DNA from: Eledone cirrhosa
Lineage: Eukaryota
NCBI GenBank assembly: GCA_964016885.1
Contig: OZ024743.1
Span: forward strand, 15,562,001-15,626,000
Length of the DNA stretch: 64,000 nucleotides
Direction of reading: 5' to 3'
Both the position numbers and the translations under genes were made by a program. The first letter of the stretch is position 1. Each line of letters starts with the position of its first letter. Positions 18,401-41,120 of the stretch are shown here, in pieces. Under the pieces are notes generated by a model. The model had not been told where the DNA came from, made no database searches, and saw only the letters and a list, made by a program, of their open reading frames with translations.

Positions 18401-18835
18401 TTATCAGAAATAAACTGAAGACTGAGTTTTGGTTGACATCCACCTACATGACAAATTCATCTGAGTACACATTGCCAACTCTCTCCTTCTTCCTTCCAAC
18501 ACACATGCACAAACACACAGAGATATATGTATGAGCAGGTGAGAGTTGTCACGAACAAAAGAAATGCAATCAACACAGTGTGCAAGTTGAATATATTTAT
18601 ATTAACAGTTTGTTTTGGGTGATGTAAAAAATATATCAAACTGGTCTGTCTGTCTGTCTGAGGATAGTAGACGTGTTTCATATCGCTCCGTGATTCGGAA
18701 TTTTACCTGCTATATTTGTGAGTGAATTTTTTTGAATTCTTTTGTATCATTAACTCTAACCCCTAGTCTGGGACTCTAGACGTAGGGTAATTATATTTTC
18801 ACCCCTTTTGGGGTGAAAAATAATTAACTCAAAAA

Positions 18836-20098
18836 ATGTTTATCGATATCGTTGATAACGATATCGTCGAAAACGATATCGCCATATTGGAAGCGAACGC
18901 CACGCCTACCAAAAAAACAAGCGGGAAAGAGGAAACAACAGTTCAAACTGTTGAACAGCCCCTCCTCTCCAATGAAAAAAAAAAGAATATCAATTCAAAT
19001 GAAAAACTGAATTTTGAAGGAAAAAAAAATAACACCACAAATAAGGAAACCAACATTACAACAACAAACAAAGACAAAATTTCTTTTGCCCAAACACTCA
19101 GCAGAGCCACGGAATACAAAGCCATAGACATCACGAACGCCAAGGAAAATTTGCTAGAGGCTAGAAAATACGTATCTTTTGGGGAAGATGGTTCTTTTAC
19201 GATCAACTCCCCAGAAGAAGTGCGTCAACAGATTTACAATAATACCGTAACCTACAGAACCATAACCAACGAAACGAGAAAGCCAGCGCAATTGACCGAA
19301 GGTCAAATTGAGCTGGTTTTGAAAGACATTAAAAAGGACATACTCTTTATTCAAAAAGGAAAGCTGTATGCCAGCATTATAGTCCGAATGAAGGACGAAA
19401 TGCTGGCTCAGAAATATTCGGTGGCACCTATAGTGTCACCACAATACACCTTCTTCCCCACATATAAAGGAAGAAGAACACAAAGGATAAGAATGTGGAG
19501 CCCTACGCCAGAAATTAACATCTGGTCCGTCCTAACAGGATTTACCGACCTAGATAAGGACATACTCATTTCAGCAGGGGAGTCCACCAGTGGACTGTTC
19601 GGGGGGAAAAGTCTGGAGGTTCTCTTACAGATGACACCTGAGAGAATCTCCGGAATACCCGACCGAGTGCTACTGGATGGGAGAACCTACATAAATATCA
19701 CAGTGGAAGGCAGGCGACCCTCATGTTACCACTGCGCTGGTAGAGGTCACCTGAGGACGGCCTGCCCTCTACTAACAAAAAAACCACTGCTACAAACACC
19801 ACAACAACAACAAAAACAACCAGCACCACCATCACAAAAACAACAAAATACACTACCATCACCACCAGAAGACAACAAAAACCAACAACAACACCACCAC
19901 CACCACAACAACAACAACAATATCAACAACAGCTCAAGAAAACAACCCAAAACACGGTCCCACCCAGCCCCACCCCACAGAACACAAATACAAAAACACA
20001 CGCAGTTCATACACAACCCGGAGATATACCCCTCCCCTCCAATACGGAAGAAGAGCTCATATCGTCGGAAGACGAGGGGGCTCCCTTCCAAGAAGTGA
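18836..20098 (+). CDS. Tx1 ORF1 nucleic-acid-binding (gag-like) protein; C-terminus frameshifted
   Basis: 420-aa ORF with zinc knuckle CYHCAGRGHLRTAC and a Q/P/N low-complexity tail. An alternative frame (DIPLPSNTEEELISSEDEGAPFQEVKRKK) suggests the original frame continued to 20599. Confidence 0.85.
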   Translation: MFIDIVDNDIVENDIAILEANATPTKKTSGKEETTVQTVEQPLLSNEKKKNINSNEKLNFEGKKNNTTNKETNITTTNKDKISFAQTLSRATEYKAIDITNAKENLLEARKYVSFGEDGSFTINSPEEVRQQIYNNTVTYRTITNETRKPAQLTEGQIELVLKDIKKDILFIQKGKLYASIIVRMKDEMLAQKYSVAPIVSPQYTFFPTYKGRRTQRIRMWSPTPEINIWSVLTGFTDLDKDILISAGESTSGLFGGKSLEVLLQMTPERISGIPDRVLLDGRTYINITVEGRRPSCYHCAGRGHLRTACPLLTKKPLLQTPQQQQKQPAPPSQKQQNTLPSPPEDNKNQQQHHHHHNNNNNINNSSRKQPKTRSHPAPPHRTQIQKHTQFIHNPEIYPSPPIRKKSSYRRKTRGLPSKK

Positions 20099-20314
20099 AA
20101 AGGAAAAAACGTACACACACCACACAAACAAAAATAACCCCACCTGACAACACAACACAGACAATAAAACGCAAACTCACTCAACAACAACAAGCAAAAA
20201 CAAACACAACACAAAAACTCTACACATACATAAAAAAAAAACAATAAAAACCTAACTGAAAAAATAGAAAACAACCCTTCGATACAAACCGAAGGGCCGA
20301 ATTTCGTAACGGCA

Positions 20315-20599
20315 ATGGGGCTCCCTAACCTGAAAATGGTGAAAATCCCACTTGAGATTTTCAAAACTTTGAAAGACATTTACCCTGAGGACGTGGGCCC
20401 ACCCTGCACCAGGCCACTCAACCGCGTCCTCCTGAAAGGTTTTCCCCTCCCCTCCTCAAACACCCACACAACTCCAAAGATCCCAACCCCTCCACACACT
20501 AATACCCCCACACCACCACAAACCACCACCCCACCCATCAACCCCTCCACCAGCCCCATGGAAACTGAGCGGCCCGAACCCCAGGACGCAGAGAGGTAA
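20315..20599 (+). pseudogene. probable frameshifted C-terminal part of Tx1 ORF1
   Basis: Same A/C-rich composition as ORF1, P/T-rich, and ends 23 nt before the ORF2 ATG. Confidence 0.6.
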
Positions 20600-20622
20600 G
20601 TGCCTCTTTCTTTGCCACCAAC

Positions 20623-23600
20623 ATGGCTGTCTTAAGAGTAGGTTGTCTAAATGCGCGTGGCCTGGGCTCACCGTGGAAGCAAGCTAAACTTCTAAGTGAC
20701 CTCGGGTCACAATGTATAAATGTGATGGTTATTTGCGAGGCCCGGATCAGCAGCATGCGACAGCTAGCCCCCACCTTTGATGACTTTGAGATGCACGCAT
20801 CTCTCTGTCAGCCCGGAGGTGGGGGTGGGGTTGTCGTTCTGCTGCAAAAACATCTGGGTCTCGCTACACAGACGGTACACTTGGACCCGGAGGGTCGACT
20901 CGTGGTTCTGGACCTTGGCAATGGTGAAGGCGAAGCTTTTAGGCTAGTCGCCGTATACGCCCCTTTTGGGGCAATGCTGTCGGATTTCTTCCATCGTCTG
21001 GAGACTTTTCTAGGGACGTCCCGCTCCTTGCTTTTAGTGGGGGACTGGAATGGTATCCTAGATGCACGTTGGGACTATGTAGGGGCATGTCCCGATAGAG
21101 GGGGGTGCAACAGCCTTAAGGGGTTAATCGGCCGATTTGACCTGGCCGATAGATACCGACTAGATTTTCCAACTGTACCAACCTGGACCTGTTCAAATAA
21201 CAGTGGTCAATCTAGATCGTACCTAGATAGGTTCTTAGTTAGAATTAAGGATAGGGACTTTTTAAGTTGTCCAGAAATGCTCATGGTGGGCTATTCAGAC
21301 CACAAGTTAGTGACCTGCGTAGTCCACCTTGATAGAACGCATAGGCAGGGGCCCGGTTACTGGAAGCTCAACTTGTCCTTACCGGCAAGTAGAGCTTACA
21401 GGGACCGGATTAGAACCTTAGTTAAGGAGCGGTTGACGGGCGCCATCGTCAACAACAGGTGGTGGGGCTCTCTAAAAAGAGAGATTAGAGTAGTTTCAAT
21501 AGGAGTTAATAAGGAGTTAGCCTCAGATAGAAATAGGAAGGAAAGGGAGTTGGTAGTTAATGTTGAAGAGGCAATGAGAAGCGGCAACGTGGCCAGAGTG
21601 CAAGCGTCGAGAACGGTCTTGAACCAGTTCTTCGACGCGAAACACGAAGGCTGCGTTGTCCGAAGCAAAATACGTGCTCTGGGAAACGAGGGGACCAAAG
21701 CTGTTAGCTGGGCCCGCGTGACAGAAGCGAAAAGTGGGATTAAATCCACTATCCGGTCTTTGCGAGACCAGGATGGACGGGTGATCCTTGAACCTAAGCA
21801 AATGTGCGAGGCCTTTCAAAGGCACGTTGCCCAATTGTTCGGGAGGGGCGGGGGGCCGGTTGGAGATGTGGATTTCGGTCCATACCTCGACAGCCTGCCT
21901 CGTCTTTCGGACAGGGAGGCGAGGTCCTGCGACGGGCCGATCTCAGCAGCTGAAATAGGGGACGTGCTGAGCCTATGCGGCAAACGCAAATCTCCAGGAC
22001 TCGATGGTCTGCCCTACGAACTATATATTAATATGCCGGACTTGTTCCCCGATCTCCTCGAGGCGGTCTACTGCAACTGGCAACAGAACGGGAGAATTCC
22101 CTGTTCTGTGACCAAGGGCGTAGTCTCGCTAGTGAGGAAGGACGAGAACAAGGGGGATGACATTAGTAATTTTAGGCCCATAACTCTGCTAAATGCAGAG
22201 TTAAAGATTTTGGTGAAGGTGTTAGCGAAGAGGTTGGCGCTTGTCGTGGGGGGCCTGGTGGGAGATGCGCAGACATGCGCTATCCCGTCCAGGTCCATCC
22301 ACAACAACCTCCACCTCATGCGATACATCATAGAGAGGGTTGGGAACGAACCCGGCTTTGGTGGGGCCCTGATAAATTTAGATCAGTCTAAAGCATTCGA
22401 TAGGGTGGACCATGGTTACCTGGATGCGGTGCTAGCGGCGGCTGGGTTCGGACCCGTTTTCAGGGGCTGGATCACTGCCATGCACAGCAGCCGCATCTGC
22501 TCTAGAATCAAGGTGAACGGCTACCTTTCGGAGCCGTTCGAAATCACCCGCTCCATCCGACAGGGGTGCCCTCTCTCCTCCCTTCTGTATGTACTGGCTC
22601 TCGAGCCATTACTGCGGAAGTTGGAGTTGTTGCAGGGCATCCCTTTGGAACCGGGATTGCGCAAAGCGGTGTCGGCCTACGCCGATGACGTAACAGTAAT
22701 TGTGTCGACCACCTCGGAAATCGAGGCAATCGGCACCTTACTAGAGGAGTACGAAAGGTTGACAGGGGCTAAGCTGAACCGGGACAAGTCAGTCGCTTTG
22801 CAACTCGGCGAGTGGAGGGGCAAAGCGATGTCGTGCGACGGTATCGTCGGACGGTGGACGGAGGGCCCGGTGAAGTTGCTTGGGGTCTGGTTCGGACCGG
22901 ACCTCCAGGTGGAGAAAAACTGGGGTGAGGTGACGAATAGGGTGTTTGCACTGACCCAGAAGTGGGCCGAGTGCAAACTATCCCTAAAAGGTCGGGCGGA
23001 GGTGGCGAACGCTTACATAGCGTCCGTCATCTATTACCGCTTGACTGTCGTGCCTTGCCCGGGTGAGATCCTCGCCAAAATGGAGCGCGCCCTCTTTTAT
23101 TTCCTTTGGAAGAAGAGGTCTCCTCTGGTGAGGAGATCCATCTGCTGTCAACACCCTTTGAAAGGAGGGCTGGGGATGCCGTGGCTAAAAATGCGTAAAC
23201 ACGCATTGAGGCTAAGGCACCTCCACGTATTCCTCACCGGTCAACCGGTGTGGGCCCCGTTTGTGAGGCGAGCCTTCCCGAGGCTCGTCTCGCTCACCGA
23301 GCTGCAGTCCTGGGTGAAGCAAAGACCGAGAAAACTGGGCGACTGGCACACCGAGTGTGCCCAGGCGCTCACGGATCTCTGGCAGGCGGACCCGGCTATC
23401 GACGGAGACTCCACCTCGTCATTCTATAGAGGGCTGGTGGTTAGCGGGTGCGACGACGCCCTCGGAGAAGCCCTAGGCATGGAGGAGGACGAACTGGCCA
23501 GTCTATTCGGTAGGACTTTCGGCCCGGGACCTATGGACAACTTCCAGAAGTCCTTGGCCTGGCAGTGCTACCGAGGGCTCTGCCCGTTCGGGATAAGCTC

Positions 23601-24059
23601 TACAGACACGGGCGCCCGGGTAGGGACCCCTCGAAAAAGATCTGTCCCAGATGCGTACGCGACGAGGAAACCGTCGCGCACGCATTGGTGCACTGCCCGG
23701 GCGTTGCCGATCTGTGGGGCTATGTCGAACAACTGCTGTCACGGGTGGGACCAATTAGGTTGACCACCGAGTCCATTGTAACGATCAAGCCGCCTCCCCC
23801 CTTCAAAAATGAAGGAGACGCGGTCTTCCTCTGTGTAATAGCCATGGTAAAAGAGGCTATATGGTGGACGCGTCTGAAAGGGCTGAGGTCGGACACCTTT
23901 CTCTCCGGCCAACAACTGGTCCTTTTCTTCCGATACCATTTCGGAAGAAGGATCAGGATGGAGAGAGAGGTGCTCCACTCCAGCAAGTTTTATGAAAGGT
24001 GGGTGAAAGTTGCGAGAATGGCCCGTGTGAATGGGCCTTCTCTCTACCTCAGCCTGTAG
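20623..24059 (+). pseudogene. Tx1 ORF2: apurinic endonuclease + reverse transcriptase + C-terminal CCHC, with a single frameshift near 23575
   Basis: APE motifs NARGL, GDWN, YLD and SDH; RT motifs PGLDG, KAFD, RQGCPLS and YADD. After WQCYRG the frame shifts to ALPVRDKL..CPRCVRDEETVAHALVHC (ORFs 20623-23763 and 23565-24059). Confidence 0.92.
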
Positions 24060-26673: not shown

Positions 26674-28254
26674 TCAGTTTATATTACTGCATAGCTTAAC
26701 GAGGCCAATGCACCCTTCGCCCAGAACGGGTCGTAGTTCTGTATGTTGATGGTGTGTGTGGGGGGGGGGGGAAGAAATAGGCGAATGTGGCAAAGAAAAA
26801 GAAGGGGGCATTTGAATTTCAAGTGTCATTGTGTCATTCTCCAGGTTTGCTCGTTTGAGACGATCAACGGAAACCGTTTCCCTGGAACCCCGAATGTCCA
26901 GTGTGAAATGTTTGTCTGTGCGAGCAAGCACACGATAGGGTCCAGAGTACGGCCGTCGAAGAGGGGGTCGCACGGCGTCGTCTCTAACGAACACATGTGT
27001 CCACAAGGCAATATCCCTTGGGACGGCAGTTTTTACAGTCTGCTTCCTAGTGCCCATCGGTGGTAGATCCTTGAAATAAGAGTGAAGCCGGGACACGTGG
27101 GAAGCGGGGTCCTGCGAAGTCAGGTCAAAAGGGGCCAGCATTTGCCCCGGTAACGCCAGAGGAGTACCATAAACTAATTCGGCAGAGGAGAACCCAAGGT
27201 CCACTTTTACCGTCGACCGAATACCCAACATCACAATAGGTAGGTACTCGCTCCAACGTGAAGAGTCCATGGAAGCCCTTAAGGAGGCTTTGAGTTGCCT
27301 GTGGAATCTTTCCACCATTCCGTTTGATGCTGGATGATATGCCGTGGTTCTTATGCGAGTGGCGCCAATAATTTGTGTTAATTCACGGAAGAGGTTCGAT
27401 TCAAATTGACGACCGCGGTCTGTTTTTATTGTGGTTGGTACTCCAAAACGAGCGATCCATGCAGATACGAGAGTACGCGCTGTCGTTTCAGCAGTGATAT
27501 CTGTCATTGGGATGGCTTCAGGCCAACGCGAAAAACGGTCAACGATCGTCAAAATATACGAATAACCACGACTAATCGGTCACGGGCCGACGATGTCCAT
27601 ATGAATGTGACGAAATCTGGCATCAGGACAGGTGAAAGTTCCGAGAGGAGTTTTAACGTGCTTATAAACTTTTGACTTTTGGCAAGCGACACAGGAACGG
27701 CACCAAGCAGCAATGTCACGTCTCATATCAGGCCAGAAAAATCTGGCTGTTATGAGTTTTACTGAGGCTGATACTCCAGGGTGAGAAATGCCATGTAAAG
27801 CGAGAAACACAGTTCGTCGATGTTCCACTGGGACTAGAGGTCGTGGTGAGTCCAACGAAACATCACACAGTATTTGTCCGTCAGCCGTTGAGATCGGAAT
27901 GTATTTCAGTTTGCAATGTACAAAGTCTGGCGATGTAACATCCAACGATTCGAGAGTGGGTTGAGCAGCTGCCATTCGATGTAAATCTATCTTTTCGGAA
28001 GACGAAATCGATGCGATCGGCAGGCGAGACAGCGCATCGGCCGCTGTATTCAAAGAACCCGGAATATGTTGAATGTCGTTCGTGAACTGAAGTCCAGATG
28101 TCTCGTCTCTCTGGGCGAGTATTTGTCTGCTTTAGTTCCAAGAGCAAACGTCAAAGGTTTATGATCAGTGAAAATGGTGAATGTTCTACCTTCAAGTACA
28201 TGAGCAAAATGTTTCACAGATAAATAAATTGCTAATAGCTCCCTGCCAAAGGTG
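26674..28254 (-). pseudogene. pol: RNase H C-terminus and integrase of the Gypsy element, frameshifted
   Basis: HHCC zinc domain (HGISHPG..CRSCVAC) in ORF 27580-28053. DDE core (TDRGRQF, GMVERFH) and GPY-like PYSGPY in ORF 26674-27552. RH motif FTDHKPL at ~28155-28175 is in another frame. Confidence 0.9.
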
Positions 28255-30612
28255 CTATAGCGAGTTTCGGCAATTTAACTTTCTCGAAAATAAATCGAGT
28301 GGTTGCTGTAACCCCTCACACTTCTGCTGTAAGACTGCGCCCACGGCGCTATCCGAAGCATCAACACAGAGCGACAGCTCGGCGTTGGGCATGGGGTGGG
28401 CGAGCAAAGATGCAGTCGCTAACGCTTTCTTCACTTTCTCAAAATCCGCCAGGTGCGTTGCATTTAATGAAATGTTCATATTCTTCTGTCGACAGTTTTT
28501 AAACATTTCTGTCAACGAGGACAGTAAGCTGGAACAATTAGGCACGAATCGCCTATAAACATTCACAAGGCCCAAGAATTGCTGTAATTGTCGAAGCGAA
28601 TATGGCGGAGGCAAATCCAAAATTGCCTTAACTTTTTCCGGAAGGGGCCGAATACCATCAGCATCAATAAGATGGCCCAAAAATGTTAGCGATGTCGAGC
28701 CGAAAACACACTTAGTGGCATTAACATGAACATTATATTTCTGTAAACTCCGAAATAAGATATCCAAATGTGTGGAATGTTGTTCAGGAGAAGAACTAGC
28801 AATCAGTACATCATCGATATACGTGTAAACAAAATCGAGAACACGAGTGACATCATCCATGAATCGTTGGAAAGTACTTGCAGCATTTCTAAGTCCGAAA
28901 GGCATAGTGAGGAACTCGAATGATCCGAAAGGAGTGGTAATAGCAGTCTTTGGAATATCCTCCTTTTTAACCGGAATTTGATTATAAGCGCGGATCAAAT
29001 CAAGCTTAGAAAAGATTCTGCAACCCTGCAATGACGATGCAAAATCCTGTAAATGCGGGATTGGATAACGGTCAGGCACAGTAATCGCGTTTAAGCGTCG
29101 GTAGTCACCCGTCGGTCTCCACTCACCAGAAGATTTAAGTACCATATGCAGAGGCGATGCCCAAGCACTTGTGGAAAGCCGAATTATTCCTAATTCCAGC
29201 ATGTGGTCGAATTCAAGACGTGGAGCTTTCAACTTCTCTGCAGATAATCTTCGAGGACGTGAGAAAACAGGTGGACCTGTAGTGGATATAAAGTGTTCAA
29301 TCACATGATCCGGACTAGCAATTCGTAATCTTCCTTGCGTCAGCTGTGGGAATGATTTTAACAAACTGTGATACTGGTTGCCCACTTCAGCCAAGAAAAA
29401 AGCAGGTCTTACTGTGGCGATCTCCGGCTTTGAACCCTCGAACGATAGGCCTGTATTAGCATCACAAAGTCGTTGTCTGCGGATGTCAATCGACAAGGAA
29501 AAATGGTGGAGGAAATCCGCTCCCAAAATGGCATATGGCAAGTCGGCGATAGTAAACTTCCACTTCAATTCACGACGCAAATTTTTAAACCGAAGAGGAA
29601 GCGAAATTTGCCCGTACGTTCGAATGGCCGTGTTGTTGATTGCTCGTAAATTGATATTTGATTCAGATGGGTTTTTTTTAAGATAACTGACTGGCCAAAT
29701 ACTTAGTGACGCGCCAGTGTCGACAAGAAAAAAATTTTTTGACTGCAGATCGTACACAAAAAGATGACGGTTTGGTCGAGTTTCCCAGAGTTCACTAGCC
29801 GCCCCTAGTGGCTCTGATTGGCGTTTTCTCCTATAGTTGCAAGGCGCCCGACTGCCAAAGTTAACATGATACCAACAAATCGAAGAATTACTGCTGCCTG
29901 AAGTGTAGTGTTGGCGAGGAACAGAAGATGGTGGCGAACGGTACTCGTAGCGGTTTCGAGGAATAGCAGACGGAGACGAACGGTACCTTAAACGTTGAGA
30001 AGGCTCTCTATGTTGTACAGTCAAATCTTCTACCTTTTTGGTGAGAGCTTCAATCAACTCCAACAGTTTGCTGTCGGCCACAGAAGAATTGCGTAGGGGG
30101 ACGCAAGCTGAAGCCACATAAGGATTATGCCGATTGCTGTTCGAGTCCACCTCAAGTATTCTATCCGCGGACGCGGCAAGTTGCTCTAACGACTCCCTCT
30201 CCAAACTATTAACCAAAAACCTTTGCGCACTTGGCGGTAAACGTGAGAAAAAGAGCTGCTTTATGAAGGGGGTGTCAATCCCCTGGGAGTCGCTCAACTC
30301 CCGCAAATGTCGCAAATAGGAGCTCGGCTTCCTGTCACCCATTTGAGCATCGTCCAACAACTCCTGAAAACGACTCTCTACCGACTTAGTATTTCTCCGA
30401 AGAATTTCGTTTTTTAATGAGCCGTAGGTAACGTCGGCGTCCAAATCTGTCACAACGTCCTTCACCGAGAATGCCAAGGAAACAGGTAGGCCATTGATCA
30501 GGACCTTCAGCTTATGCTGTTCTTTTGTCTTGGTTAATTCAAAGAAACATTCCAGCTGCGCAAACCACAACTTGATGTCGCTTGCGAAGGACGGCAAATG
30601 ATGTTGACTCAT
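28255..30612 (-). CDS. gag-pol: gag-protease-reverse transcriptase-RNase H (partial) polyprotein
   Basis: 785-aa ORF with WFAQLE gag start, CWYHxxFG motif, protease VDTGA, RT MPFGL and YIDD, and RH VDAS. Confidence 0.93.
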
Positions 30613-30954
30613 GGTGTCACGTATTTGATGAATTGTTGGTGTTGGTTAATAGTTAGCCAGGTGTTGCTGCTGATGGCTGGTACTTGGTGGTAGCCGTTTT
30701 GAAATACTGCTAATTTTTTTTCTTTAAGAAAAAATTCTAAAGAAAATTTGAATAATAAAAAAAAATCATTTTCCATGAAAGTTATGACAGAAATATTGTG
30801 CAGGCCGCGTGCTTCAACAAATGGAATATTATGAATTTTATGGGCTTACTCTAAGTGAGTCTAGCTACCCGATTCGAACATTCCAAATGTTAAGCCACTC
30901 CACATTGCCGTTAAAGCGAATGGCGAATTCAAATAGGCTGCGTTTTCATACTTA

Positions 30955-31603: not shown

Positions 31604-32512
31604 TCATCATCGTTTAACGTCTATCTTCCACGTTACCATGGGTTTAGACGGGAATTGTCCCATGTGAGGCAACATTGGTTGTCTTGCTCGTATAAGACTG
31701 TCTGGTGGGTTTTTTTGTCGTGACACCTACACGACCTCATTTATTTAGGACCGGATGTTGTGGTACCAACATAACTTTACAGAGAAAGGGATGGTGTAGA
31801 TGGGGGTAGGGGTAGTGGAATGAGGGTGTATTTTTGGTTAGGAGGTGCCTACTGACACTAGGTTTCGCTTTGTACTTACGCAAGGCGGGTCTTCTGTTTT
31901 ACTGCGTAGCGCCAAAGATCTCGGTCCAGTGACATTGTCTTGGAGTGGTGTAAGTGTGTATGGTCAGAATTTATCAAACTGTCCCAGGTTTTTCTGGGTC
32001 TGCCTACTCTGTAGCTTCCATCTATTTTGATCGCCCTGCACTTTTTTATACAGCTGTCGTCTTTCATGCGCATCACGTGACCATACCAACGCAGTCTTCT
32101 CTCAAGTACACAGCATCTGATCCCTCTTATTCCTAATTTCTCACTTAGTTCATTTATGCTTTGCCGTTCACGTATATTACTATTACACATCCAACGGAGA
32201 GTGCAAGCTTCGTTCCTCTCCAGTCTGCGCATATCCTATGCACACAATGTCCATTACTGTTCGTATGCAGGCATCATACAGTCTGCCTTTCATTTTTAGA
32301 GAGAAACATTTAGCGGCCAATAGTAGTATAAGCTCTCTGAACTTTTTCCATCCCACTCTGACCCTAGCTACTGTACTTTCAGAGCACCCTCCACCACTGC
32401 TGATTTTGTCACCCAGGTAACGCAAGGTGTCCACTATTTCTATAGAACCATCTGGGCAATGGAAGGAGCTAGTATCCTGTGGGCACTTGCTACTACTTAT
32501 TGCACCTGAGCA
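31601..32512 (-). mobile_element. 5'-truncated RTE-clade LINE
   Basis: YLGDKISSGGGCSESTVARVRVGWKKFREL and RRLRWYGHVMRM..GRPRKTW (ORFs 32183-32434 and 31876-32232). The 3' end is ACGTTAAAC(GAT)n. Confidence 0.88.
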
Positions 32513-32581
32513 CCAGTGGAAACAGTAGCATAAGTTTAACTATACTAAGTATAGTTAAAATTATGCTACTGTTTCCACTGG
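32513..32581. repeat. 69-bp palindrome (34-bp arms, 1 mismatch) at the RTE 5' junction
   Basis: CCAGTGGAAACAGTAGCATAAGTTTAACTATACT-a-AGTATAGTTAAAATTATGCTACTGTTTCCACTGG, checked base by base. Confidence 0.95.
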
Positions 32582-35500
32582 AGGAATAGAAGCTAGACAA
32601 ACTAATATAAGAGAGGTTTGCTCATATCATGTCCCTGACTACAGCTTCTGAAATTAAGAAACAATACAATATTAATTACCTTGATAAATTATGACAACCA
32701 ATATTGGAAGAAAATTCTTTTATCAACAGGATTCTTTGGAAGTATAAAATAGTATTCAGTAGATCGTATAAAAACCTTGTCCTTATTGAAACAGTATGAT
32801 ACATCCAATAAAATGGATGTGTAGTTCAACTCCTAAATGAATATCTATATATCAGGACAACATATGAGGTTCGCAATGACGCTAGAAATAGCACCAATGT
32901 AAATTATCCACAGCAACACAACATCAAATTTATCATATTATCTTTATATACAGATATTCAATTAATAGTCAAACAATGTGTGCATGTTATTGAACACATC
33001 ATGCATTTTGAGTAAGTACAACATATGTATACTATCTATTGAATATTATTTTCTACTTCCAAAGAAACCCTCTGATGATGAAGGAATTTTTTTCCAATAT
33101 AGGTTGTCTTATTTGATTTAGATAATTTCTATTGTTTCTTAATTGCAGAAACTGTTGTTAGAGAAATGATATGAGCAAAGCTCTCTTATATTGGTTTGTC
33201 TAGCTTACATTCCCCCAATCAAGAATTTGGTATACATTTAAGTTTATAACCATCTATGATTTAGATACGTTTAGCTATCTTTTCATTGAAATGTCCCATA
33301 AACTAGTGGCAAATAACTCTTCCTTTTTCTCTGTTTTATATATGTATGTATATATTATTGTGTGAGTGGTATGTGTGTGTGTGTGTGTGCATGTTCATAT
33401 ACATATATATATACATACTTATATATATGCATAGTATAAGAGAGAAAAATAATTTTGTGTATATGTGAAAGTGTGTGCAGATATGTGTTTAATCACCATT
33501 GTTTCTTTTTTATTGTTGTTCTTTGCCTGGCAAATATATTTAAAGATAGACAAACTGTGTGGAAATATCAGACCACTGCTATAAGTTAATTGAAATGTAA
33601 AAGAATTTCTCTCTTTTTAACATTTTTTTTTTATTTAATTTTATTGGAAGGATATTTGCTTTTTTCCCCTTTGATATTACCATACTTTTCTGCAAAACCA
33701 CATTATATTGTAATGTATGTTTGTACCCATGTACTTAAGTTTCCAGACAGCACTTAACAGAAATTGTTTAAAGCATATTGTGTAGAATATTGGACAGTTG
33801 AAAATAGTAAAGGAGGTAAAAGATCAGGAGAGTATTAGTGTTAAGCGATCACATGTTTGAGATCAAATCTTCTTGCTATCATGTGTTGTCCCATAGCAAA
33901 ATCTGATATTAAAAAATTCAATAACAGTAATATGCTGCTGGCCCAATTTAATGTAATACCATACATAACAAATATGAATATAATGCCATTAAAGAAGCCT
34001 CTACAACGTTGTCTGATCTAGTAGAAACAGGAAATAAATCTTTCTGAAATAAATCCTTATCTTTTTAAAAATTATAAATTATAAACATAAGAACAGATCA
34101 GAAATATAGCCATACATAAATATAAATATAATGAACAGTTATAGTGGGCACAGGTTTGGTCATATGCCTACTCAGACTTGCATTATTTGGAACTAAATTA
34201 CAACATAAATGCATGAAGAAATCTACTTTTGGAAACTAATCTACTTTTTATTCATTTTTTTTCAAAGTGTTTTCTAAATTAGCCAAAAATTTAATAATAT
34301 GTATATTTAATTATATTCGAATTAGTACCCCAAAAGTATATGATTGCCTATCATTACTTTCTATCTTGTTATGTTTGTACTCTGTTGTCTTTTTCTCTGT
34401 CTGTCTCAGTAAGATATACAAACATTCCTAGATAACATTAAAAATAATTAATTCTCAATGAGGAGTAAAATGTCCAACATTTTGGACTTTTATACTTCTC
34501 CAATAAATAGAATGGAAATCAATTTTGGGGTTGGTTAGAAGTAAATGAGAAATGGAAGATCAATGAAAAAAGAGATATGTGGGAGGAAATAAGTGCACTT
34601 TCTAATACATATGCTCAGGGCCAAATGTAGACATTTGTAGGTCTTCATATAGCATCAGCAATCATTTTAAGGCCATTTTCTTGTTAAAGAACCTTTATGA
34701 CATTTCAGGCCCTAGGATAAAATTCTACATTTTGCCATATTGACTTTGATCTCCCTTAACAACACTAACTTTCATTTCCTCCACCATCATCCTCAGTCAC
34801 CCTTTTTCTAACCCCCTCCCCCCCTCATTTATATCACCCAGTCATTTTCATCCTTTCACTACATATAACCCAACCATCTCATTTCATTTCTCTTCACTGG
34901 TTCTATTCCCATCAACCCTGCAATTACATTTTAGTTATCTTCTCTCTGAGCAATACTCCTTTCATCTAGTTACCATTCTCATTTTTGTTGTTTCCATTCT
35001 ATGTCTTGAATGTCCATCACCTGTGTTTTGCTCCCATAAATCATGGCATTTCTCACACACACAACTTACATCTTTCCCTTCTGTTTCAATGACAGTCCTT
35101 TCCTCATTAACACATCACAAAATTCCCAGACATTCTAATTTTTGTGTACAGGTCGTACATAAAAGAAAAGTTGCATTGCAAATTACTAAATTTAAATATC
35201 AAAATACATTTAGCTCATGAAATTGTGATTGACAATTTTTACATACAAAATTTAATTGCAAAATGAAATAAAGATTTTTTTCCATAAAATTATGATGGAA
35301 GGTTTTTGGATAAAATTAAACTCTTTAAAGCAATTTTGTATTTTAGAATCAGTGGTTTGGTATCAAATCTTATTACAAAAGAAAGTTTAGATTTTTTATT
35401 TCAAGAGTTAAAATACATTTATGTTAGGATATATTTTATCAAATCTCCATAATGGTAAATAATTTTCTTACATTTTAGTATTTTTGTGGCAAGTAAATAT

Positions 35501-35777
35501 TGCGACAGATGTTTGACTACCTTTAGAAAAAAACATAGGAGAGGTAGTCAGAGAGAGATGAGGGGGAGAAAGAGACTGAATATAGAAGATTTCACATTGC
35601 TTTGAATTTCTTCAAAAACATCAGTCCTCTACAAGATCCTGAAGTTACATCAAGGTGGTAGGAAAAGTATGACCATTGTGTACATACACACACACATATG
35701 CATCATGCACCATCCCTGATATAGCTATGCACACACACACATGTATATATATATAGGTATATATATATATATATATA

Positions 35778-36545
35778 CAGGGTGCGGACGATATTTGTTC
35801 GCAAGATTACTGTCTAGGATAAAATAACACGGAAGTTTTATTTTTTAAGATATATTTATCAAACTTGGGTCAGTTTGTCTTCATGACTTGTTCTTTCGAT
35901 TTCACTCGATAAACACACCATTAGCTTTGATGGCGGCCTCAAGGCGGCCTCGGAACCGGCTACAGGCCTTCGTCACTGTCCCCTGACTTAGGCCCCTAAA
36001 GGCACTTGTGATCCTGGCCTTCAGATCGTCTTTCATATTGCAGCTAGATCTGTTGGTGTCTCATTCCACTGCACACCACACAAAGAAGTCGAGGGGTTTG
36101 CAGTCAGGCGAGCTGGGAGGCCAGATGTCATGTGAAGTGTGGTCAACGAAGTTCTCTGACAGCCAGGCTTGGGTCTTTCGGCTGGTATGGCAGGTCACTG
36201 AATCTTGCTGCCACACGTACGGCCTACCTGCAGCTACCTGGTCAATCCAGGGCTTTACTACCTCGCTCAGAACGCGGATGTAGCCATCGGTGTTCAGCTT
36301 GAAGCCCTCAGGGAAGCAGTGAGGTGGCATGACGTCACCTTGACTGCTGACGACACCTAAGACCAATGTTGTCGCTGGAAACTTTGTCTGCATGACTCTA
36401 GGCACGTCTTTGGATGAGACACCATTCTCCTCCTGATGCTGAGAAAGTCTGAAATTTCCTTATTTGTCCTCCCGCTGCAGATTCCAAGAAGAACTCCGTG
36501 TCTCTTCCACAAATTTGCAGGTTCAAAATTATTCATAATCAATTA
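35778..36545 (-). mobile_element. internally deleted Tc1/mariner-superfamily transposon, DD37D (maT) type
   Basis: TA|CAGGGTGCGGACG terminus in a (TA)n tract. Transposase remnant QQD-(37 aa)-D with WPPSSPDCKPLD. The N-terminal HTH-like piece (KRHGVLLGICSGRTNKEISDFL) is fused directly to the catalytic half. The second TIR was not found. Confidence 0.85.
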
Positions 36546-36840
36546 TTCTGAAAATAAATAATGGAAATATAGTCACTGTTTTTATGAAGACAAAAGTTAC
36601 AACGGAAATTAAAAAAATGTGCATAAAATTAGCAGTTGTATAATGAGTGTATAACTCTGCATTTTATTTGAATTTTGGCTCTTAGTTGTCGAGCTAACTA
36701 GTTGGGTGAATTTAGCTTATTATTTCTAGCCGTTTTAAAATCCTCCCACGCCACTCGAAATGAAGGACACACAAGGTATTTCATTCCCTCGTGTTTATTT
36801 AGTTTACCTACTTTCATAGGTGTTTGTTGCTTATAATCTC

Positions 36841-36929
36841 ATCTTCCGCTGAGGACTGCCTCCGGATTATCTGTTACAAACACAACTTTTCAGGGCGAAA
36901 CAGATTAATCTTTAATCTGTCCAGGAGAT
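36841..36929 (+). ncRNA. type I hammerhead ribozyme-like motif
   Basis: ATCTTCCG-CTGAGGA-ctGCC...GGGC-GAAA, perfect 9-bp stem III ACAGATTAA/TTAATCTGT, GTC triplet at 36919-36921, and stem I partner CAGGAGAT. The stem II closure is offset by 2 nt. Confidence 0.7.
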
Positions 36930-37063
36930 AATAATTATTGAAATGGTCTGTACATTTTAATTTTATCTTGTATTTTCCGTTTGATTCAGAGTTTATATTC
37001 ATCAGACCAACGTGGTCTTTCTACCCTTGTAATTCTAAACACACAATTTACTGTGTTTATTCC

Positions 37064-37105
<42 letters not shown>

Positions 37106-37920
37106 GGAATAAACACTCATGTATATATATACATATATATATATATACATGAGCAAGCATAGATATTCATATGGGTCCCTCATAGACAACAATCAAAATA
37201 CACACAAAATTACCAAATATTTATATTAAAGTCTATTTAGTGTTCGAAATTTTATTTGACTATTTTTACATACAAAATTTAAATGCCAAAAAGTGACATT
37301 CTCATTATTACGTTTGTGTTTGGAACATAACATAAATGTTTTTTCATAAAATTATAATGGGAGGTTTCTAGATAAGTTTGAATACTTTAAAATAGTTTTG
37401 AATTGTAGAACCATTTTAGCTAGTTTGGTATCAACCTTCATTCTACTAGAATGTGTAGATTTTAAATTTCAATAAGTAAAATAAAGGTTATTTTCATAAA
37501 GATATGATGGAAGGTTTTTAAATGAATTCAAACTCTTTAAAGTTTTGTATTGTAAAGTTTCATGTTTCAAACTATATTACAATGGAAAGGTTAGATTTTA
37601 AATTTCAACAATTAGAATTCACTTATGTTAAGATATATTTTATCAAAATCTTCATATAATTTCAGTAAATAATTTACTTACATTTTAGTGGCAAGTAAAC
37701 ATTGCAACAAATGTTTGGCTACCTTTAGAGAGAGAGAGAGAGAGTAAAAAAGTTTTAATTTCTTCAAATACAGCAGTCCAATACATGATCATGAGGTCAA
37801 ATGATTGAGATAGCAAAGGAATGGTCATTGCGTACATACACACACAAAAGCTTATAACCACACATATGCACACATACATATAACTATACACATCACACAC
37901 CATCATTAATATAACTATAG

Positions 37921-38104
37921 GGCGGTGGATTGGCAGTATCGGTAGAGGGTCGGATGCCATGCTTTCCAGCATAGTTACGTCCCTTTATGATCTGAGTTCA
38001 AATCCCGCCGAGGTTGACTTTGCCTTTCATCCTTACGGGGTCGATAAAATAAAGTACCAGTAATGCACTGGTAAATTGCTGGCCTTGTGCCTAAAGTAGA
38101 AACA
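37921..38104 (+). mobile_element. tRNA-derived SINE, full length, 19-bp TSD
   Basis: TSD ATCATTAATATAACTATAG at 37902-37920 and 38105-38123. A box TGGCAGTATCGG, B box GAGTTCAAATCC. Confidence 0.95.
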
Positions 38105-40519: not shown

Positions 40520-40524
40520 TAGCA

Positions 40525-41120
40525 CCTCATGGTGGTCCATTGCTGTGCTAGAAATAGCAGCTAAATTAAGGGAGCCTCATGGTGGTCCATAGGTGTGCTA
40601 GAAATAGAAGCTAAATAGGGAAACCTTATGGTAGTCCATAGGTGTGCTAGAAATAGCAGCTAAATAGAGGGCACCTCGTTGTGGTCCTTAATTGTGCTAC
40701 ATCAGGTAAACATGAGGAACCTCATGGTGGTCAATAGGTTGCTAGAAATAGCAGCTAAGGACGGGTAACCTTATGGAGGTTCATAGATGTGCTAGAAATG
40801 GCAACTAAACAAGAAGAAACTTATGGTGGTCCCTAGATGTGCTAGAAATAGCAGCTAAATAGAGGGAATCTCGTTGTGGTCCTTATGTGTGATAGAAATA
40901 GTATCTGCATCAGAGGTGTGCTAGAAATAGCAGTTAGATAGGAGGTACCTCATGGTGGTCCCTGGGTGTGGTAGAAATATCAGCTATATAGATGGAACCT
41001 CATAGCCGTTCACTGGCGAAATAGAAATAGCAGCTAAACTGGGTCAACATCATGGTGGTCCATGGATGTGCTAGAAATATCAGCTAAGTAGGTGGAACCT
41101 CTTTGAAAGTCCAGAGGTGG
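40525..41120 (+). repeat. ~50-bp tandem array, about 11.5 units
   Basis: Unit CCTCATGGTGGTCCATAGGTGTGCTAGAAATAGCAGCTAAATAGAGGGAA starts at 40525, 40575, 40624, 40674, 40720, 40769, 40819, 40869, 40948, 40998, 41048 and 41098. Confidence 0.92.

Follow-up and report, generated by a model that had tools for sequence, protein, structure and literature searches.

A Hammerhead-Bearing, Retrozyme-Like Repeat in Eledone cirrhosa With a Conserved Antisense Leader That May Lock Its Ribozyme

The window analyzed here is a 64,000-nt stretch of the Eledone cirrhosa genome (GCA_964016885.1, contig OZ024743.1, positions 15,562,001 to 15,626,000, forward strand), and all positions below count from its first letter. 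A hammerhead-like motif at 36841-36929 lies in a short repeat that directly abuts the remains of a DNA transposon (Table 1). Elsewhere the window holds what we take to be a LINE-type element with endonuclease and RT frames (18824-24059, + strand) and, presumably, an LTR-retrotransposon-type gag/pol region in pieces (26674-30645, - strand), together with a ~50-nt tandem repeat at 40524-40991 and a near-perfect ~75-nt palindrome at 32507-32586. An old, diverged direct duplication (35180-35740 and 37200-37880, with a period of ~2.0-2.2 kb) flanks the transposon and ribozyme insertions.

Table 1. Positions of the ribozyme motif, its leader, the repeat that carries them, and the adjoining transposon.
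Feature	Position	Strand	Remarks
Non-autonomous Tc1/mariner-type (maT-like) DNA transposon	35778..36638	-	Without first ~34 bp (one TIR)
Retrozyme-like repeat copy, subfamily A	36639..37070	+	~430 bp, sub-monomer length, ORF-less, ends in (TA)n
Small hairpin 5′ of leader	36805..36822	+	36805-36810 with 36817-36822 (predicted fold); overlaps first bases of leader; UAG at 36816-36818
Leader antisense to loop II	36819..36839	+	17 bp in window copy (8 + 2 + 7)
Stem I, 5′ strand	36841..36848	+	Pairs with 36922-36929; one private change
Catalytic box CUGAGGA	36849..36855	+	Followed by 2-nt insert CU, 36856-36857
Stem II and 31-nt loop II	36858..36896	+	Leader-pairing segment 36864-36883
GAAA box, stem III, GUC	36897..36921	+	GAAA at 36897-36900
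Stem I, 3′ strand	36922..36929	+	One private change, giving a C.A mismatch
3-bp hairpin after stem I	36930..36939	+	Family loop NGUU; AAUU in window copy
Unit 3′ end, (TA)n run, and ~20-nt inverted copy of same 3′ end	37053..37116		64-nt palindrome

The neighboring transposon belongs to a high-copy TIR element of ~890 bp, for which the genome yielded 1563 candidates. Its ORF has 37 residues between the second and third Asp (counted by eye), which we take to be the DD37D (maT) spacing; the region of the first Asp is deleted, TIRs are present in siblings, and the ORF gave no Pfam match. In 11 of 14 siblings the TIR begins 34 bp before the starting point of the window copy, that is, before the junction with the ribozyme unit, and the siblings' start was not found downstream of that junction among the matches over 60 bp that were listed. 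The same junction (36638/36639) is a common left boundary of the subfamily A copies of the repeat, and on this boundary the idea that the motif is part of the DNA transposon was rejected. The first-pass annotation, made from the letters of this DNA, had proposed that the ribozyme-bearing element removed the missing TIR. The loss does fall exactly at the junction, but removal at insertion and a later deletion, perhaps together with the inverted arm of the repeat, fit equally well.

All three catalytic blocks of a hammerhead (CUGANGA, GAAA, and NUH) are present at 36841-36929 in type I order, which excludes a non-circularly permuted hammerhead of the SGC/CSG type as that class is described (PMC10085705). 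They occur as CUGAGGA, GAAA, and GUC where the annotation had placed them, and stem I likewise has the 7 of 8 pairs that it gave, including one G.U; the eighth position is a C.A mismatch, and the changes behind the stem I defects are present in 1 and 2 of 30 BLAST-selected copies. Stem III has 9 bp in this copy (36900-36908 with 36912-36920). Stem II, first described as GCC/GGC offset by an extra CU, does follow a CU but is better drawn with 4 bp (GCCU 36858-36861 with GGGC 36893-36896, the last pair being U.G). Cleavage is predicted after C36921, at the end of GUC. A check against hammerhead covariance models, which the annotation had recommended, came out negative, with no Rfam hammerhead match to the window motif even at E 10, probably on account of the long loop II. 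The 110-nt stretch by itself also gave no hammerhead fold (z -2.16), and as neither approach recognized the motif, homologues were needed to judge it.

A search of the species' own AT-rich genome (3.0 Gb, animal-like in its repeats) gave 1351 candidates, of which 40 were scored. In all, 117 copies were found and 115 kept, two being dropped for foreign flanks; the alignment holds 92 of the 115, and leaving out truncated, rearranged, and very degraded copies by eye has raised the percent-paired figures that follow. The copies are related and mostly picked by core pattern, and the counts are not independent. The exact core pattern matched the genome 135 times with a 2-nt insert and 820 times with an insert of 1-3 nt, against zero matches of the reversed-pattern control in both cases, so the motif is not a product of chance, and 36841-36929 is almost certainly a real hammerhead motif. 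A hammerhead layout found in at least 820 places of one genome is thus missed by Rfam, and such motifs may be under-counted elsewhere. With a relaxed pattern (2854 matches versus 516 in the control) the sister families P, Q, R, S, and T came to light, whose stem, loop, and leader letters differ from those of subfamilies A-H and which share scattered motifs and unit structure with them (read by eye). A metagenome pattern scan yielded 80 loci, four of which passed a loose filter; these were without the family's stem III and were taken as chance.

Across the 92 aligned copies, stems I-III are 96-97% paired. Stem I (96%) shows two-sided change, one of its pairs being U-A in 60 copies, C-G in 19, and U.G in 8, and stem II (97%) varies by one-sided changes, its fourth pair being U.G in 59, C-G in 26, and U-A in 5. 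The annotation had called for covariation among BLAST-collected copies and had named a lack of it, or of core conservation, as the outcome that would count against a ribozyme. All three helices are kept, stem letters differ between sister families, and the catalytic boxes, the G10.1-C11.1 pair, the NUH site, and the three stems persist across families that share little else; stem III, for its part, has zero two-sided changes within subfamilies A-H. Individual copies decay: 16 of 30 BLAST-picked copies, the window copy among them, have all 14 scored core positions. Between the eight subfamilies, identity is 0.85-0.91 for the core, stems, and paired loop segment (0.91 for the loop segment), 0.75 for the leader, and 0.68-0.69 for the rest of the unit, making the ribozyme block its most conserved part.

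Two traits that the annotation had stressed turned out to be local. The perfect 9-bp stem III is a minority variant (8 of 92 copies, the ninth pair being found in 4 of the 30 BLAST-selected copies), 8 bp being the norm (59 of 92) within an overall range of 5-9 bp. The insert after CUGAGGA measures 1, 2, or 3 nt in 32, 53, and 7 of the 92 copies and 0 nt in sister families, and CU, which was to be compared with the consensus, is the majority only in the window copy's own subfamily (22 of 30). Since both vary among copies, neither was retained as a family-defining trait. The 3-bp hairpin with NGUU loop that follows stem I is intact in 70 of 89 copies of A-H and in 18 of the 23 labelled P/Q, its stem existing in six different versions, and G occupies its second loop position in 26 of the 30 BLAST-selected copies. 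Loop II of A-H also contains a near-copy of the stem III 3′ strand and cleavage triplet (window 36864-36875), not kept in P/Q, whose partner lies 21 nt upstream of C3.

Comparison of the window with 30 genome copies (BLAST) delimits a shared span from 36639/36643 to ~37070-37105. The window copy differs by 6.9% from its subfamily majority and is the only one in the window, where a covariance model built from the copies (R1) found no other. Elsewhere in the genome, the units stand head to tail at spacings of 424-547 nt in eight loci, with up to five units (five at 472-nt spacing), and they contain no ORF, the longest ATG frame being 29-96 aa; in other copies the sequence that follows the 3′ end is found again ahead of the 5′ end. 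Of 102 loci examined for insertion structure, 98 had a usable anchor. An inverted partial copy lies upstream in 65 of the 98 and downstream in 13, a TA run closes 69, and 49 have more than 500 nt of same-strand cover, i.e., a partial tandem. The window copy has the (TA)n end and lacks the upstream inverted arm.

Inverted truncated arms and (TA)n targets are the insertion pattern described for Penelope-like elements (PLEs; PMC8557442). Because the inverted arms, partial tandems, and (TA)n ends seen here match that description, we read the repeats as Penelope-mobilized insertions and are rather confident that the element is a retrozyme-like, non-autonomous unit moved by Penelope. The ORF-less unit and the insertion structure agree with the annotation's suggestion that the type I hammerhead came from a non-autonomous ribozyme-bearing element. 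No ORF with RT and GIY-YIG contiguous with a unit was found in the scanned loci (flanks of 1.5-5 kb, around a small part of the copies), and the PLE-like ORFs near L029/L061, L063, L065, L067, L071, L107, L220, and other loci are separate insertions set off by (TA)n. At least three types of Penelope-like ORF occupy the same (TA)n runs (L061:1520-3827, - strand; L065:3721-5864, + strand; L063:1-1026, + strand), and one of them has a small hammerhead-like core ~460 nt after its GIY-YIG motif.

A feature missed in the earlier annotation lies just 5′ of stem I, where 36819-36839 is complementary to 36864-36883 in loop II. The predicted duplex is worth -18.6 kcal/mol versus -7.8 for shuffled loops, and 0 of 1000 shuffles were as good. 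Family-wide, the leader measures ~20 nt and takes up most of the 25-35-nt loop II in a pairing of 17-22 bp; a search for the leader 8-mer, the core, and the complementary loop 10-mer gave 523 matches versus 0 in the control. Among 130 distinct copies, the leader pairs with its own loop better than in 95 of 100 shuffles in 109 (A-H, 76/89; P/Q, 18/23; R/T, 7/7; S, 3/3; unassigned, 5/8), the family labels being rule-based with a few misplacements (L235 is unrelated; the second match in L211 and L217 have foreign flanks) and the upstream control of family S being inflated by one locus. In five unrelated hammerhead-like matches, leader pairing was not above shuffles. Own leader:loop pairs average -17.8 kcal/mol, versus -8.3 ± 3.4 for cross-group pairs (n = 304), and 16 of 21 rows have the own pair as the best one, the exceptions coming from an altered-leader copy and from the related groups P, R, and T.

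Within the alignment the leader:loop helix is 88% paired (92 copies). Two-sided changes are almost absent from it within A-H, where most changes are one-sided and keep pairing (A-U 57 / G.U 33 at one pair, U.G 51 / U-A 14 at another), and pairs with two-sided changes are overall no better than in shuffles (152/500); taken alone, the one-sided changes of A-H would be weak evidence. Considered with the comparisons between families, the leader:loop II pairing is very probably conserved. In 14 representatives, 19-28 nt of the loop strand lie within the duplex, which contains internal loops in every family. Upstream, small hairpins similar to that of the window are seen by eye in families P, R, S, and T. 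The UAG at 36816-36818 and its homologues follow a U-rich run just 5′ of the leader in most families; of 93 GUG-bearing copies (21 of 114 copies are without GUG), 66 have UAG no more than 6 nt from the leader's GUG, versus 15 with UAG in the preceding 7 nt. This UAG could be a splice acceptor or a mere hairpin arm.

Folding was done with ViennaRNA, in which pseudoknots are not scored, and the predictions are thereby biased against a coexisting pseudoknot. In seven of eight circular monomers the leader and loop form 15-17 expected pairs while stem I is absent (z -3.2 to -8.5); the eighth (L073) has an altered leader and shows no lock. When the leader is removed in silico, stem I rises to 5.5-7.8 expected pairs in 9 of 9 copies other than that of the window; stem II recovers in six of the nine and stays below one expected pair in three, including both subfamily A copies. 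Two of the nine (L019 and a subfamily G copy) keep stem I with the leader present. In local folds, the locked and ribozyme structures lie within ~5 kcal/mol of each other in 6 of 8 non-window copies; of the other two, one favors the duplex by 10 kcal/mol and one the ribozyme by 11. For the window copy the duplex is favored by 14 kcal/mol, and stem I fails to form in silico even without the leader (0.1 expected pairs), so this copy is probably inactive; it is probably a decayed, ordinary dead insertion. The annotation's idea of a monomer-active variant may apply to the family and not to the window copy: since a long stem III is found family-wide, no dimer should be needed, and a dimer requirement was rejected.

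From these folds, we consider it somewhat probable that the element carries a monomer-competent hammerhead whose built-in antisense leader locks it off in the predicted circular RNA. The observed starting point is the ORF-less unit of 424-547 nt, which is found singly or in tandem and in most cases has a truncated inverted arm on its upstream side and ends in (TA)n. By analogy with PLE and retrozyme biology, multimeric transcripts would be cut to monomers and circularized, and a Penelope-type RT/endonuclease acting in trans would copy the circles back into (TA)n. The 5-9-bp stem III would let a single copy fold alone, removing the need for a dimer, by which other ribozyme circles of animals are protected. 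In its place, the leader would zip onto loop II over 17-22 bp, a helix that in its full length could not coexist with the 4-bp stem II, and the circle would rest in an inactive hairpin; the fold is predicted and the complementarity covaries. Full duplex and catalytic fold are expected to be mutually exclusive on geometric grounds, because in three P copies only 33-34 nt separate the catalytic boxes; once stem II is counted, ~1-3 nt are left over on each side, not enough to bridge about two helical turns.

Cutting would then take place in a short-lived active fold that keeps at most the distal ~8 bp as a pseudoknot; this fold would be attained while the RNA is being transcribed, or through the action of a PLE protein, and this is the weakest step of the proposal. 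The difficulty is that transcription produces the leader ahead of the complete ribozyme, so that the inactive hairpin should form first. Candidate routes to the active fold are kinetic trapping of the leader, a partial pseudoknot, and help from a PLE protein. Precedents have been described for blocked hammerheads in plant retrozyme circles (PMC4918200) and for protein-assisted cleavage of a PLE hammerhead (PMC11167929).

The same complementarity may be read without an off state, as an activating pseudoknot that keeps stems I and II next to each other and is partial enough to coexist with the catalytic fold. About 40% of hammerheads are reported to employ a contact of this kind, whose disruption makes cleavage 20- to 100-fold slower (PMC3088659); the element shows no evident loop 1/loop 2 contact of the canonical type, and the internal loops of every family's duplex could restrict pairing to a short helix. 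The published contacts span 4-6 bp, however (PMC3088659), whereas some of the 17-22-bp duplexes reach the edge of stem II, and selection for a short contact fails to explain why the whole length is kept. We regard this reading as rather unlikely, if the most serious of the alternatives.

A far less probable one holds that the ribozyme no longer cuts, that hairpin and core serve as a recognition signal for binding or priming by a Penelope-type protein, and that the leader:loop helix is just part of a compact circular fold. In Anolis, PLE hammerhead mutants had no effect on in vitro insertion and no RNA-seq ends were seen at the cleavage site, according to the cited account (PMC11167929); here, the monomers are strongly folded overall, with the inactive fold as predicted ground state. 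That fold needs neither the catalytic boxes, G10.1-C11.1, and the NUH site nor the three stems, yet all are kept. Marginally less probable again is that the units are solo pseudo-LTRs of truncated autonomous Penelope elements and not a self-standing retrozyme. Their insertion structure is PLE-like and most PLE hammerheads are described as single motifs away from ORFs (PMC4209133), but the units stand head to tail with no ORF between them, and (TA)n stands between them and the nearby PLE ORFs, which carry small hammerhead-like cores of their own wherever a motif was detectable.

The element resembles the metazoan non-LTR retrozymes (PMC7229834; bioRxiv 10.64898/2026.07.22.740005), with which, as these are described, it shares a type I hammerhead, an ORF-less, low-GC (32-37%) unit present as monomers and tandems, a stable predicted circular fold, and co-occurring PLEs. 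It differs in unit length (424-547 nt versus the 150-450 reported), in its 5-9-bp stem III (1-2 bp as described), and in its loop II of 25-35 nt. Where those ribozymes have a small helix III and a loop 1/loop 2 contact, the element has the long leader:loop II pairing, and it is filed as a retrozyme variant because the unit is retrozyme-like but its ribozyme departs from this canonical form. A self-pairing block is predicted here, as is the circular RNA itself. In the published account, most animal retrozyme circles are predicted to have a free hammerhead, blocked by something other than self-pairing, with some mussel circles excepted (PMC7229834); in contrast to that statement, the element would be a family in which a self-pairing block is kept by covariation across lineages with different letters.

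Minimal PLE pLTR hammerheads (PMC4209133) share the type I order, extra nucleotides between A9 and G10.1 (a 1-nt bulge at this place being a published PLE hallmark), the G10.1-C11.1 pair, and many divergent families per genome, along with inverted truncated arms and (TA)n targets (PMC8557442). They differ from the present layout of long stem III, 7-8-bp stem I, short stem II with a large loop, 0-3-nt insert, and no ORF. The large helix III recalls the type I hammerheads of fungal and protist PLEs, of which that of Serpula was active as a monomer (PMC4209133); these are described without a recognizable helix I-II contact, and here the host is an animal and the long leader:loop II pairing covaries. 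Monomer activity by itself is already known for invertebrate hammerheads (PMC7761336). Pseudoknotted hammerheads, including that of human C10orf118, also have a base-paired contact from the stem I side to loop II, but one of 4-6 bp that is activating (PMC3088659), whereas the 17-22 bp found here are predicted to be exclusive with stem II. Plant LTR retrozymes and hammerhead viroids resemble the element in having a complementary sequence predicted to block the ribozyme in the circle (PMC4918200); they are type III, with LTR, PBS, and PPT in 600-1000 nt and a block over most of the ribozyme, whereas the leader of the element is short and local and is directed at loop II alone.

Long helix III, short pseudoknots, and blocked circles are thus all known, and what may be new is their combination in an animal element, together with a leader:loop II pairing that covaries over 17-22 bp. 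A literature search found no description of this layout in the main-text passages it covered; similar motifs may be drawn in supplements. As a tentative extension, which we hold with a little less than even confidence, the families may form an old superfamily of animal ribozyme circles in which dimer control was replaced by an RNA switch, a monomer-active hammerhead with an antisense leader whose opening would be gated by folding kinetics or by the copying Penelope protein. If true, an animal genome would hold a naturally occurring hammerhead that has two states and covaries in sequence, and this would offer one answer to the question of how retrozyme circles in animals are kept from cutting themselves. 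The leader-lock family could also serve as a natural template for switchable ribozymes.

Several minor observations concern individual families and loci. Family R (L224-L226 and L246) has GUU at the homologous cut site and weak stems I and III; it keeps the leader:loop pairing, occurs in tandems at 547 nt, and is possibly a ribozyme-dead lineage still being copied. Another hammerhead-like family (L233, L234) has a 2-bp stem III region, a long stem II insert, and no leader pairing. A common SINE-like repeat lies inside many ribozyme units near the TA-rich join (L005, L016, L019, L023, L028, L063, L066, L067), with target duplications in several cases; the window has an example at 37918-38100. 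Finally, the stem III loop in L089, L078, L095, and L106 is the exact reverse complement of that in L075, L084, and L113, as if the hairpin had flipped during copying.
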